A stretch of 33,693 nt of DNA from Candidatus Heimdallarchaeota archaeon (GCA_021399395.1 JAAFKJ010000146.1:1-33693); one strand, 5' to 3'; positions 197 to 5,233 are shown, counted from the first letter of the stretch. Numbers and translations are program-made. Notes: generated by a model not told the origin, from the sequence alone.

Positions 197-1054
197 ATGA
201 GTACAGAAAAAGAGGAGAAAATAGCCGAACATTTATTCTCTCTAATTGATAAGAAATCAATTTGGGAATTAGAAATTTTCTCCTCAATTCTAAATATTCA
301 TCCTGAAGATCTTGCTGGATTTATCAAACAGTTTCCAATGGCATATGGATTATCGATTCAAGGTAAGAGATTGTACATCACACATGAATTAGTTCGAGAT
401 GTTCTAGACGAAGTCAAACTGAAATTTATTGAATGGTATCAGAGAGTTGCACCTCGAGAGTACTCACAAGCTAAGAGAACTGAAGAAATAAGGAAAGAAC
501 ATTTTATAGACGACCGTCCTGAAAGAATCTCATCTAAGATAAAGATAAGCGTTTATGGAAATAACTATGTAGTTGAAGATGTTCTAAATGATTTTCTAGC
601 CAGAGAAGGTTTAAGCCCTTCTTTCCAATATACAGGCGGTTACGAACCTTTCGATTTCCAAAAGACTATAGGTAACGATATTTACAACTGTCAATTTTTA
701 TTAATTGATTACAATAGAGATTTTCTCTCTCTAGCTCCACTTCTTTTCGAAATGCCTGAAGCATTTTTGTTCATTTTCAATCCATTAGATAAACTTCAAA
801 TTGATAGACTTGTCAAAATGATTCAAAGCCTTATTGCTAAGCGTAAGAAAGATATTCTAGTAACATTTCTAGCAATAGTTGGAAAGGATATTGAATCAAC
901 CGCATTGGATGAAATTACTAGTACACTTTCATATCTTGTCGAATTTCTTGAAGAAAAACCAGTTTACAAAGTATCATTCGCAATTCTATCTTCTAATGAT
1001 CAAGTTGAAAGAAAAATGAATGATTTAATCCAAACAGCTAAGATGCTTTTTTAA
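197..1054 (+). CDS. Hypothetical protein: N-terminal wHTH/PCI-like domain plus C-terminal degenerate Rab/Ras-like (pseudo-GTPase) domain
   Basis: 285-aa ORF. Residues ~114-285 follow the small-GTPase pattern (KISVYG...FQYTGGYE...CQFLLIDYNRDFLSLAPLLFEMPEAFLFIFNPLD) but lack GKS/T, DxxG and NKxD. Confidence 0.6.
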   Translation: MSTEKEEKIAEHLFSLIDKKSIWELEIFSSILNIHPEDLAGFIKQFPMAYGLSIQGKRLYITHELVRDVLDEVKLKFIEWYQRVAPREYSQAKRTEEIRKEHFIDDRPERISSKIKISVYGNNYVVEDVLNDFLAREGLSPSFQYTGGYEPFDFQKTIGNDIYNCQFLLIDYNRDFLSLAPLLFEMPEAFLFIFNPLDKLQIDRLVKMIQSLIAKRKKDILVTFLAIVGKDIESTALDEITSTLSYLVEFLEEKPVYKVSFAILSSNDQVERKMNDLIQTAKMLF

Positions 1055-1763
1055 CACCTTTAGAAGATTCTAGTTCCTTATTCATCAGATGTTCTTCAAC
1101 TAATTCCAGTAATTTTGGATATGCTCTAAAAGATATAAACAGTGGGTAGAACCCTATACCTAACCCCAAGATAGAAGCAGCGAATGCAACAATTCCAATG
1201 ATTAGGAAAACTACTCCTAAAGTGTTGTTAAAGAAACTACTAATTAAAAGAAATATATACCCAAAAGATTGTACCAGATAGGAAATCATGATAAATGTGT
1301 TGGGAAATTTTGCTATGTATTTCTTAAAATAATACGTTTTAAGATCCTTCCTAAATAAGAAGAATCCAAAAGAAAATAGAGGACCAACTAAAATAAGAAG
1401 TACGATTCCAACAAGGGTAAGAATATAAACAATGGTAGGGTGCTCCTTAAACACTTCAGCTATGATTAGAATCAATATTGCAACAAGAAATGTCACCGCT
1501 CCAGATATTATAAAATATGCTGATTTTTTTACATGACTCCAATCAGCAAGCGGGTCATAGGACAGATTGAAAATACCCCAACTGAATCCAATATAGCCTA
1601 AAAGTATTGGAATCATTAAAATATGATGATTCTTCCAGCCGGGTAGTAGTAATACTTGAAAACCATCAGTTAGTGCTACAAAACCAATGTGAAAGACTTG
1701 AAAGAAAAAAACCATGATCAAACTGTTATTTATAATCTTAGAATGTTGCTGACGACTAAACAT
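1038..1763 (-). CDS. Multi-pass (~6 TM) membrane protein, paralog 3 of a tandem triplet
   Basis: Six hydrophobic segments. The GFFLFRKDL and GFYPLFISF motifs match the two upstream paralogs. Start overlaps the upstream stop. Confidence 0.8.
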   Translation of the reverse strand: MFSRQQHSKIINNSLIMVFFFQVFHIGFVALTDGFQVLLLPGWKNHHILMIPILLGYIGFSWGIFNLSYDPLADWSHVKKSAYFIISGAVTFLVAILILIIAEVFKEHPTIVYILTLVGIVLLILVGPLFSFGFFLFRKDLKTYYFKKYIAKFPNTFIMISYLVQSFGYIFLLISSFFNNTLGVVFLIIGIVAFAASILGLGIGFYPLFISFRAYPKLLELVEEHLMNKELESSKGVKKAS

Positions 1764-2433
1764 CTTTCTCTTCCTCTTCGAATATCTCTAATTCCTGCCC
1801 ATGACTCCATACTTGTAGAATCTTCATGGTCGAAGTTAGTCCTAGAAATCCCAGAAGTATCAAGAATGTTGCAAATAAATAAACATAGAATGCAAGATTC
1901 TCCTGCCAAAGTTGAAATGAAGTCTCTCCAACATAGGAACCATACCAACCTATTATTGAAGGAACTAGATAAACAAGAAAACCTAATGCAAGAAAATATT
2001 GCCCTTTTCTTTCAATAATCTCATTTTTTGCTAAGTTGTCGATATTGATTTTTAAGAATATAAATGCTGTAACAAGAACTACTGCTTGACATACTAATAT
2101 AGAAAGATTAAGGAAGACTAGAGGTTCAGTGGTCCAACTAGCTCTTAAGTTTGTGTAAGTGAATATTATGTTAAGTATGTCTAATCCTGCAGAAGTGAAA
2201 AGCAATACTGGAGCTATAATCCATTTTGAATAGTTTTCTAGTTCTCTACCTAACCTAATTAGGCCTATTCCAAATAGTACCAGAGCACAATCAAATGCTA
2301 CATCTGCGATCAAAGTCATTTCTTGAAAATCAACAGCGATGATAGTAACAGCTGCTACCCTTATCATTTGGACAATTGTTAAAATCCAAGCGGAATAAAA
2401 AAGATGTTTTGTGATATCTTTCAGATCATTCAA
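1756..2433 (-). CDS. Multi-pass (~6 TM) membrane protein, paralog 2 of a tandem triplet
   Basis: TTG start, six hydrophobic segments, RKGQYFLALGF motif shared with 2443-3387, acidic C-tail. Confidence 0.8.
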   Translation of the reverse strand: MNDLKDITKHLFYSAWILTIVQMIRVAAVTIIAVDFQEMTLIADVAFDCALVLFGIGLIRLGRELENYSKWIIAPVLLFTSAGLDILNIIFTYTNLRASWTTEPLVFLNLSILVCQAVVLVTAFIFLKINIDNLAKNEIIERKGQYFLALGFLVYLVPSIIGWYGSYVGETSFQLWQENLAFYVYLFATFLILLGFLGLTSTMKILQVWSHGQELEIFEEEEKDV

Positions 2434-2442
2434 AAGAATAAC

Positions 2443-3387: not shown

Positions 3388-3490
3388 TCTAACACCAACT
3401 TTGTCATACAGTATTTAAATATGCGGAGTAATGACTTCAAAATCAAGAAGAAAGGAAAATATATAAGTACTCCCAAATAACTTTTTTTTG

Positions 3491-4114
3491 ATGAGAGTTT
3501 CTTCTTCTCTATCCTTACTTGCATGTATAATTGGTTTTCTTACTTTATTGATTCCAGTTTTGTATAGTACAGCAGGTTATGCGCTGACTTGGATGGATAT
3601 ACAAGAAACTCCACCATTGTGGATTTTCATAGCTACAACTCTTATCGTAGCTGCTCATGATATAAGTTGGCTTGAAGGAATCAAATTCATTAGAGGGTCT
3701 GATATTAGAGTTTTTAGAATTATTCTAATCGCAATAGCCATAGGCATGGCTTATGCTATGGAACTCTCCGTAAATGTTCGTCTAACTTCCCAGACCTTCT
3801 GGCAATCAGCACTGTATTTCGATATCCCTAATGATACTAATGTTCTAATGGAATATAGTATTCTTTATTATAATATGCAAATTGTTCAAGTAACTGATAT
3901 TACTTTTAAATCAACTTTGGTCTCTTCTGTTTTCTCACCAACCAATCACATCTTTGTCTTCAAAAATTTTGCAGGATTAGGTTATCATTTGATGAGATCT
4001 TGCAGAGTCATACTCATCTTTGCATTCATTACAGCGTTCTTAGAAAAAAGTCTCAGAATCTCTCGGGTTATAAAGAACATAGATGCTGATCAAATCAAGA
4101 AAACTAAGCCTTGA
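3491..4114 (+). CDS. Hypothetical membrane protein (~4 TM)
   Basis: Hydrophobic segments at the N-terminus and near the C-terminus. ATG at 3491 (TTG 3488 is an alternative), about 25 nt after an ATATATAA box. Confidence 0.75.
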   Translation: MRVSSSLSLLACIIGFLTLLIPVLYSTAGYALTWMDIQETPPLWIFIATTLIVAAHDISWLEGIKFIRGSDIRVFRIILIAIAIGMAYAMELSVNVRLTSQTFWQSALYFDIPNDTNVLMEYSILYYNMQIVQVTDITFKSTLVSSVFSPTNHIFVFKNFAGLGYHLMRSCRVILIFAFITAFLEKSLRISRVIKNIDADQIKKTKP

Positions 4115-4174
4115 TGACAATAGTTTTTAATTCTTCCTCATTTTCTATTTATAGAAATCTTCACGTTGATAGAC

Positions 4175-5233
4175 ATGACATCATCAGTATTTGTTCCATA
4201 TATTGCTCTTTTAGTTCTAGATGATACAGGCATGTCTCTTCGTAGTACCAGTCCCATTCCTGAAATTTCAACAGATGAAATCATTGGTATTGGGAATTTT
4301 TATAGCCCCGTTGTTTCAGCTTCTTCTCCTAACTTAGAGATTTATGGGCCTTTGCCGATACCTCATTTTGAAAAATACCATTTACTAATTGTTACCTTTA
4401 GGAAGAAGGATTCGATAATATCAGACCCTAGGGCTAAGTATAAAGAAACTCTTTCATTTTGTCAATTACTGATTTTTTACAAAAAAGAAAATGATGAAAA
4501 AGTTAAATTCGGTCATGGACAGATTTATACTACTGTAGATATATTTCTTCAAGAATTTGATGATGTAGCTGCAATTGGTGACAACGAGCTTCTAAAATTA
4601 AGTGAAATGCTTATAGAGAACGTTTTATTGGATGATCAAATCAAATCAAAGAGCATTGAAGATATTGTGAGAGATATTGCATCTCGTTTTAATACAATCC
4701 AACAAATCTCTCATTTACTCAACAGAAGAACAAAAATTGGTATAATCTCATCTGATTCTCTCTCATACAACTTAATTATACAAGCATTATTTCACTACCA
4801 AAATATTGATTTTATATATCAATTGGATCGGAATGAATTCATAACTAGAATTGACACCTATTTCATGAGAATTGTTCTTACACTTCTTTTTGACACAGAA
4901 AAGATAGCAGGTAAAGATTATTTTAGAGAAATGGATTATTATGTTTATTTAGCTTCTTGTGAAGAGCAAGAAAGCTGTAAAAGTCACATAGAAAATATAG
5001 ATTCTTTGTTCGAAAGAGATCCAAAAGCAAAAGTGTTTTTTGTTACAGCTGAAAGGGCTGAGCAATTACCTTTAGAACACAAAAAATATCTATTTCATGA
5101 AACTGAGAGAAGAAAGAATCTGAAATTAATGATATCTGTTGGAGATATTTTCAGAACACTAGATAATGCTATCTACCTAATTTTAAACGACATATTGGAG
5201 TTAAGAAAAATAATCTTGAGTCAAAAAAAATAA
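4175..5233 (+). CDS. uDENN/longin-like domain fused to a degenerate small-GTPase-like domain
   Basis: N-terminal LLVLDDTG..P / YGPLPIP / FxxKD...DPR pattern recalled from Asgard longin/DENN-like proteins. C-terminal KIGIISS...DYFREMDYYVYLASCEEQES mirrors Rab YYRGAHGIIVVYDVTDQES without a P-loop. TTG 4166 is an alternative start. Confidence 0.55.
   Translation: MTSSVFVPYIALLVLDDTGMSLRSTSPIPEISTDEIIGIGNFYSPVVSASSPNLEIYGPLPIPHFEKYHLLIVTFRKKDSIISDPRAKYKETLSFCQLLIFYKKENDEKVKFGHGQIYTTVDIFLQEFDDVAAIGDNELLKLSEMLIENVLLDDQIKSKSIEDIVRDIASRFNTIQQISHLLNRRTKIGIISSDSLSYNLIIQALFHYQNIDFIYQLDRNEFITRIDTYFMRIVLTLLFDTEKIAGKDYFREMDYYVYLASCEEQESCKSHIENIDSLFERDPKAKVFFVTAERAEQLPLEHKKYLFHETERRKNLKLMISVGDIFRTLDNAIYLILNDILELRKIILSQKK

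Follow-up and report, generated by a model that had tools for sequence, protein, structure and literature searches.

Asgard longin-GTPase fusions, GAP-like Asgard longins and eukaryotic chains that combine a GTPase-activating protein (GAP) with pseudoGTPase domains are already known. The fusions have been published (PMC10933270, Tran et al. 2024), as have N-terminal longins on AArf GTPases, whose native regulators remain to be established (PMC11914678). GAP-type longins, for which a GP motif together with an arginine finger is the defining mark, have been reported in Heimdallarchaeia with a finger like that of FLCN and SMCR8, and the question has been raised whether they partner with ArfR or with Rag proteins (PMC12290439). 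In eukaryotes, the pseudoGTPases p190RhoGAP, CENP-M and Rnd keep the G fold as an interaction module, and p190RhoGAP carries pseudoGTPase domains and a GAP on one chain (PMC10211241). Here, we describe a locus (positions 197-5233) in a stretch of 33,693 nt, hereafter the window, from Candidatus Heimdallarchaeota archaeon (GCA_021399395.1, JAAFKJ010000146.1:1-33693; genome G000, estimated to be 82% complete), in which two genes predicted to encode differently fused pseudoGTPases, g1 and g6, flank four membrane-protein genes, g2 to g5. A literature search that reached neither subscription papers nor several supplements returned no report on pseudo-GTPases of Asgard archaea; relatives of g6 may be among the AArfs with fused longins and the two CSW-like candidates that the supplements of PMC11914678 list. 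The features of the locus are as follows (TM, transmembrane segments):

197..1054, plus strand: g1, 285 aa, probable winged-helix domain and predicted Rab-like pseudo-GTPase
206..448, plus strand: N-terminal domain of g1, winged-helix/PCI-like (residues 4-84)
521..1051, plus strand: predicted Rab-like G domain of g1 (residues 109-285)
1038..1763, minus strand: g2, 241 aa, 6-TM, paralogue of g3 and g4
1756..2433, minus strand: g3, 225 aa, 6-TM
2443..3387, minus strand: g4, 314 aa, 6-TM, with a low-complexity linker
2470-2529, minus strand: C-terminal zinc ribbon of g4 (PF13240)
3488..4114, plus strand: g5, 208 aa, 4-TM, no kinship to the g2-g3-g4 triplet
4166..5233, plus strand: g6, 355 aa, longin and predicted Arf-like pseudo-GTPase, clade A of the g6 family
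4181..4639, plus strand: longin domain of g6 (residues 6-158)
4430..4432, plus strand: codon of R89, candidate arginine finger, in the longin loop between strands 71-81 and 96-106
4667..5203, plus strand: helix and predicted Arf-like G domain of g6 (residues 168-346)

Both flanking proteins are predicted to end in a small-GTPase domain. The AlphaFold models of g1 and g6 (predicted local distance difference test, pLDDT, 80.2 and 80.5) show six strands and five helices in the order of the small GTPases, and all structural comparisons reported here start from these predicted models. For the g1 domain, the best Foldseek match is Rab8 (E 4.4e-8), and superposition on Rab28 gives a VIA Z of 17.0 with a root-mean-square deviation of 2.8 A over 160 residues; an ESM Atlas score of 0.87, taken as a lead only, points in the same direction. 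For the g6 domain, the Arf family tops the matches (Z 12.0-12.8, the highest to ARL5 and HodArfR1), and the alignment covers full-length Arf/Arl chains, many of them GDP-bound, over about 160 residues including the N-terminal helix; helix 159-186 of g6 is its best conserved part (87% mean identity), and the nearest ESM Atlas cluster is a 347-aa archaeal family annotated as Arf/Ras (score 0.93). An initial annotation of this stretch, made from the DNA alone, had read both C-terminal domains as following the Rab/Ras order and had staked its interpretation on their folding as GTPases. The models and the Foldseek and Z matches agree with a GTPase fold in both and with a Rab-like domain in g1, whereas g6 turns out to be Arf-like and not Rab/Ras; the proposal of two differently fused pseudo-GTPases is borne out by the structure comparisons, with g1 as a probable winged-helix-Rab and g6 as longin-Arf.

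The motifs of nucleotide binding have been lost in position from both domains, as had also been claimed for the P-loop, DxxG and NKxD, with one correction concerning a remnant of switch II in g6. The P-loop position is occupied by GNNYVVED in g1, where the glycine at its start (G121) is retained, and by SSDSLSYN in g6; GxxxxGK[ST] is found in 0/25 g1 and 0/22 clade-A g6 sequences. At the G3 position g1 reads [D/N]Y-x-R, DxxG not being in position at the end of beta3, while g6 keeps D243 and an invariant G249 followed by F-R with a broken spacing (D-x5-G), and AGQ at this remnant in 4/22 sequences. Sought anywhere in the domain, DxxG is met in 5/25 g1, 2/22 clade-A and 25/34 clade-B g6 sequences, these being position-free hits that were not individually placed. 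NKxD occurs at any position in one of the 25 g1 domains, and in the alignment it is not in position at the end of beta5; none of the 22 clade-A g6 domains holds it. The residues of the g1 switch regions G147-G148-E150-P151 and R174 are invariant. Three comparisons of g1 gave a ratio of non-synonymous to synonymous substitution rates (dN/dS) of 0.07-0.08; for g6, where the ratio was computable in two comparisons out of three, it is 0.02-0.04. Synonymous sites are near saturation; these values indicate maintained pseudo-enzymes rather than decaying genes. On the predicted models, then, each of the two proteins is a pseudoGTPase which has kept the fold, lost the motifs and remained under purifying selection. 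In one genome g6 is split over two frames (L034:11845-12911; G012:C169:16845-17904), by assembly error or as a pseudogene.

These domains escape the usual sequence searches. Pfam at E 0.05 gives no family for g1, g5 or g6, its Ras and Arf models miss g6, and NCBIfam has no family for any of the six proteins. Against the sequences of solved structures, the g1 profile reaches Rab5-type proteins at E 0.3-1.2 only, and nothing meaningful was returned for the g6 profiles or for the profile of a DENN-looking protein described below. A recent duplication linking g1 and g6 was considered and rejected, their profiles matching at 0.2%. G000 has 35 matches above the Pfam Ras cut-off, some of them fragments or larger GTPases, and besides g1 and g6 it encodes two or more degenerate G domains, so dead copies are not rare in this genome. 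Arf-like GTPases of this genome are encoded at C74:39683, C93:8469, C131:26161 and C145:12523. One of the degenerate domains is a 203-aa Arf-like protein (G000:C3:5553-6161, L092; Pfam Arf E 2e-5) without G1, G3 or G4, a third pseudo-GTPase of the genome.

The N-terminal domain of g1 is probably a winged helix. Modelled as part of the whole protein, it shows three helices and a beta-hairpin wing in a topology that fits this fold; Pfam DDRGK is matched in 3/9 members (best E 9e-6) and the winged helix of MCM8 at E 0.1. In two genomes, G045 and G046, g1 is shorter (192 and 181 aa) and lacks this domain. A paralogue in G000 (C111:2790-3698; L091, L141), present in 19/83 genomes of the class, combines the same N-terminal domain (profile 95%) with a Rab-like domain and aligns with the g1 profile at 93-95%. 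It retains GxxxxGKQS and [NT]KxD (13 sequences recovered by filter, of 18 loci) and has lost DxxG; it is a half-way stage of GTPase decay, and is likely to represent the gene from which g1 arose by duplication.

The longin of g6 is closest in structure to a Loki longin (8yqg, Z 13.9-14.0), followed by Lst4 (11.6), 7o2w_A (10.7), 6nzd_H (10.3) and 8fw5_B (9.3), within an overall Z range of 9.3-11.8 for these further matches; the chains from 6nzd, 7o2w and 8fw5 belong to what we take to be entries for C9orf72-SMCR8, FLCN and GATOR1. Its arginine R89 is invariant in 22/22 clade-A and 34/34 clade-B sequences and in 27/27 rows of the family tree; G61-P62 is invariant as well, and G22, in the beta1-beta2 loop, nearly so. 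In eukaryotic GAP longins, which are heterodimers, the arginine finger is placed in the corresponding loop, and R89 may be the equivalent of the FLCN/SMCR8-type finger. In its fold, in the glycine of the beta1-beta2 loop and in the putative equivalence of its invariant arginine, g6 resembles the folliculin/NPRL2/SMCR8 longins and their Asgard look-alikes (PMC12290439), from which it differs by G-M in place of G-P, by the fusion to a dead Arf domain and by the lack of a partner longin among the six genes. The published Asgard fusions (PMC10933270) share with g6 a longin joined to an Arf/Rag-like G domain; unlike g6, which Pfam Ras and Arf miss and in which G1 and G4 are absent throughout, they are recognised as GTPases by sequence. 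With the Asgard ArfR/AArf GTPases (bioRxiv 10.1101/2024.02.28.582541) g6 has in common the match of its C-terminal half to HodArfR1, helix included, but it is predicted to be unable to switch. The eukaryotic pseudoGTPases show no homology with g1 and g6 beyond the fold and are independent cases, even if p190RhoGAP carries on one chain what is proposed for g6. Four further g6-class longins with D-x-R are found in G000 (C149:7369, C23:32765, C165:8503, C31:24759), with other N-terminal domains, one of them receiver-like by eye.

An Arf-like GTPase with intact motifs does stand beside another branch of the family. Full-length members of the g6 family occur in few lineages of 400 phylum genomes (five candidates scored per genome), and in a tree of 27 rows clade B is the sister of clade A (ultrafast bootstrap, UFBoot, 99; split from clade A at 100). 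It has the g6 architecture, a P-loop in 0/34 sequences and NKxD anywhere in 7/34. In 7/9 loci holding a B sequence, the clade-B gene immediately follows the gene of an Arf-like GTPase (Pfam Arf E 2.6e-23), a neighbourhood that also links the family to the Asgard ArfR/AArf proteins; the GTPase motifs are intact in six (L075-L078, L081, L082), whereas in L094 both genes are broken. Of the other two loci, L134, from a genome of another class, has the same four cassette genes in rearranged order, and L135 holds a lone fragment of 108 aa. This cassette consists of the intact Arf-like GTPase, a protein of about 300 aa that looks like DENN by eye only (Pfam gives GAP1-M at E 0.06 in 1/4), a 6-7-TM protein and the longin-pseudo-Arf protein; at L077 the DENN-looking gene occupies 3678-4568, the GTPase gene 4580-5161 and clade-B g6 5172-6215. 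The cassette is patchy across families, variable in order and possibly mobile, and also occurs without clade-B g6 at L097, L100, L101 and L106. Each of two single-contig genomes that have an intact clade-A g6 carries broken remains of the cassette, located at the same site (L093:7326-7650 and L094:5835-7456). Clade B as a plain orthologue of g6 was rejected: G046 holds both an intact clade-A gene and a broken clade-B cassette, and clades A and B are therefore paralogous. No close relative of the DENN-like or membrane gene of the cassette was found in G000, at its 82% completeness.

Two other arrangements were observed around Arf-like GTPases. In another family (L098:5793-6605, L099:4349-5128, L103:5810-6604, L104:5499-6347, L105:5221-6006) a CxxC protein comes after the GTPase, and the C-terminal half of this protein resembles by eye a G domain without motifs, a resemblance that profile comparison (<=0.3%) does not support. 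At L137:3026-6213, a distant longin-plus-G-like protein is convergent with an intact Arf-like GTPase and adjoins a gene with a uDENN-like GP start.

The four genes lying between the pseudoGTPases fall into two groups. Hydropathy gives six hydrophobic segments each for g2, g3 and g4 and four for g5, in agreement with the earlier description of six open reading frames at these positions, three 6-TM genes and one 4-TM gene being set between the flanking pair. The pairwise profile probabilities of g2, g3 and g4 are 91%, 95% and 74%, and the other 25/28 membrane-family pairs, every pair with g5 included, reach at most 5.3%, so that the claimed paralogy of the three 6-TM genes stands; g5 was rejected as a member of the triplet, with a profile match of about 1%. 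Pfam has weak matches only, for g2 and g3; g3 has 17 relatives among 1.84 billion cluster representatives; and the zinc ribbon PF13240 at the C-terminus of g4 is matched in 21/21 members. The three 6-TM proteins probably assemble into a single hetero-oligomeric membrane complex whose zinc ribbon faces the cytoplasm. The genes are arranged in three orientation blocks, g1 (plus), g2-g3-g4 (minus; neighbours overlapping or 9 bp apart) and g5-g6 (plus), confirming that they are not all co-oriented; the 3' ends of g1 and g2 overlap convergently by 17 bp, and g6 probably starts at ATG 4175, the point where its homologues begin. As the suggestion of an Asgard locus implied, the named homologues come from Candidatus Heimdallarchaeaceae/Heimdallarchaeota. 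A promoter scan with a bacterial consensus, which is inapplicable to an archaeon, gave 31 hits against 24.1 +/- 4.6 in shuffled sequence, near the shuffle level.

The initial annotation had joined all six genes into a scaffold or adaptor system, with co-occurrence in related genomes as its touchstone. The genes do co-occur: among 24 relatives, 20 genus loci were selected for a g1 or g6 match on a longer contig, and at each of the five internal junctions the two genes are neighbours in 20/20 of them; the order is also intact in G041. This level is nevertheless that of the background, since control junctions between unrelated neighbours are equally stable (upstream 17/17, 18/18, 17/18 and 19/19, downstream 16/17, 12/12 and 12/12; among them carboxypeptidase-7TM 17/17, 7TM-epimerase 18/18, esterase-methyltransferase 16/17 and Lrp-peroxiredoxin 12/12), and the intact order thereby loses most of its force as evidence for a module. 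In G044, moreover, the triplet lies directly between TauE and the esterase on a contiguous 17-kb contig from which g1, g5 and g6 are missing, and it is therefore separable from them; neither in G044 nor in G043, which also has the triplet, were g1, g5 and clade-A g6 found elsewhere, these genomes being 89% and 91% complete. A six-gene functional module is not supported, and the stretch is best explained as at least two things lying together in a slowly rearranging chromosome.

The locus may hold a smaller unit of g5 and g6, with or without g1. In a survey of 83 genomes of the class, full-length g1, g5 and clade-A g6 are present in the same 29, and g5 is directly upstream of g6 and co-oriented with it in 29/29 genomes holding g5; g3 is found in 30 genomes, which include G043 and G044 but not one fragmented genome of the genus. 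In the single-contig genomes G045 and G046, g1 and TauE have moved together to a place beyond g6, all six genes staying within about 5 kb, and g1 is never co-oriented next to g5-g6 even though it shares their distribution. The marker trees (aIF-2, 22 rows; RpoB, 15 rows) do not place G043 and G044, with UFBoot values of 39-55 in the RpoB tree and an open fork in the aIF-2 tree, and they do not tell gain from loss of g1, g5 and clade-A g6. No insertions occur within g1-g6, while they are frequent in the unstable interval between g6 and the esterase; a DUF4139-like protein with a C-terminal coiled coil (window 5364-7304) lies in this hot spot, in 7/20 related loci. In relatives, two to four genes from g1 and upstream of the start of the window's contig, a conserved multi-TM protein (L021:4866-6047) has a cytoplasmic C-terminal domain that is roadblock/longin-like by eye, belongs to no Pfam family and could be a partner of g6.

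The explanation that we hold to be somewhat likelier right than wrong makes g6 a GAP-like regulator, its dead Arf half serving as a fixed part for docking or autoinhibition, with g5 as its probable anchor, g1 as a separate adaptor and the triplet as a mere neighbour. The longin of g6, of the folliculin/NPRL2/SMCR8 GAP type in its manner of working, would offer R89 to an active Arf-like GTPase whose gene lies elsewhere, and the attached Arf-like domain, unable to bind nucleotide, would act as a module resembling the GDP state. The 4-TM protein g5 would most likely be the membrane partner of g6. As a duplicate of the winged-helix-Rab gene, g1 would have lost the nucleotide pocket and kept the switch surface, through which it could act as a nucleotide-independent adaptor, and the triplet would be a family-wide operon of three 6-TM paralogues independent of the pseudo-GTPases. 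We infer the GAP activity, the contact between g5 and g6, the client GTPase and the whole role of g1. With a glycine not followed by proline and a finger equivalence drawn from topology only, g6 is not filed as a member of the GAP longins and may only work like one.

Several observations weigh against this explanation. None of the clade-A loci examined has an active GTPase next to g6, and a close relative of the clade-B Arf-like GTPase was found neither in G000 nor in the genus (best 38-39% identity). The GP motif before the second strand is not kept in g6, where G22 is followed by M, I, L or V and the invariant G61-P62 lies elsewhere; there is no second longin among the six genes, unlike in the heterodimeric eukaryotic GAP longins; and R89 was placed as a finger from topology. 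Since the four further longin fusions of G000 have D-x-R too, R89 may be a feature of the whole class or have a structural role. Profile support for the G domains from sequence is weak (14% and 10%), and the fold calls accordingly rest on predicted models built from 22-25 sequences. Finally, the shared distribution of g1, g5 and g6 is left unexplained if these genes are strictly separate.

This last point leads to an alternative that we regard as unlikely, in which g1, g5 and g6 are a three-part module: g5 would anchor g6, whose longin would hold the dead Rab of g1, giving a constitutive scaffold that replaces the Arf-like GTPase cassette. Besides the identical distribution (29/83), it would account for the absence of g1, g5 and clade-A g6 from G043 and G044, genomes of the same family with an intact clade-B cassette, for the presence of all three beside broken cassette remains in G045 and G046, for the relocation of g1 next to g6 in the latter and for the switch regions being the invariant surface of g1. 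The differing lineages are only two or three, however, with G043 and G044 incomplete and unplaced by both marker trees; TauE relocated along with g1, which makes the shuffle unspecific, and g1 is never co-oriented next to g5-g6. A slightly bolder version, to which we give a little less credence still, has a membrane-anchored dead-switch module, composed of an arginine-finger longin with a permanent Arf-GDP mimic, a 4-TM tether and a dead Rab, descend from and replace the active Arf cassette. If it were true, the Arf GTPases of Asgard archaea would have their native GAP in the g6 family, which would parallel C9orf72-SMCR8 in archaea with Arf as its target, and module and cassette would show the family caught in two evolutionary states.

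Less probable again is that g6 is a DENN-like guanine nucleotide exchange factor or a plain scaffold of uDENN-cDENN-like build, with R89 non-catalytic. The central DENN domain has been described as having a minimal P-loop-like topology in which the residues for nucleotide binding are missing (PMC3521125), and g6 has a comparable sequence of a longin followed by a nucleotide-free alpha/beta domain; DENND10 (8p0v_M) is in the Foldseek list (E 2.2e-4), the GP motif is not kept and D-x-R is class-wide. In the model, the g6 domain is a full six-stranded one, whereas the central DENN domain is five-stranded, and the g6 domain is matched best by Arf proteins, along some 160 residues with the N-terminal helix; after the last strand only helix 328-352 follows, leaving no room for the all-helical d-DENN domain, and the clade-B cassette already contains a separate gene that by eye looks like DENN. 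The idea that DENN is in print as a derivative of a dead GTPase was discarded, PMC3521125 noting the topology only.

The six-gene signalling or trafficking module itself, with the pseudo-GTPases docking on the 6-TM triplet, we consider improbable. Its order, intact in the 20 genus loci and in G041 and still a cluster of about 5 kb in G045 and G046, and the freedom of g1-g6 from insertions beside the frequently interrupted g6-esterase interval are countered by equally stable unrelated junctions, by the triplet of G044 standing without g1, g5 and g6, by the three orientation blocks and by the faster evolution of the triplet, with a median identity of 35-44% against 78% for g6. It is very improbable that either domain, or both, has retained the binding of a nucleotide or phosphate ligand by way of substituted residues, for which D243/G249 and AGQ (4/22) of g6 and G121 of g1 might speak: bulky residues fill the P-loop, its Lys and Ser/Thr are missing, and the Asp that specifies guanine is not in position.

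The small GTPases of Asgard archaea are counted with sequence profiles, and g1 and g6, conserved yet missed by Pfam and NCBIfam, point to a layer of pseudo-GTPases overlooked in archaea close to eukaryotes. The g6 family would in addition be a candidate native regulator of Asgard Arf GTPases, for which both a residue (R89) and a client (the clade-B neighbour) can be named. Elsewhere in the window, a gene with a VWA domain and a co-oriented gene whose product ends in a RING finger (PF13639, E 3e-6) at 19380-22819 are a possible membrane ubiquitin-ligase pair, and at 22881-25454 a TrmB-like helix-turn-helix gene, a MinD/ParA ATPase gene and an unannotated gene of 475 aa are co-oriented and abutting.

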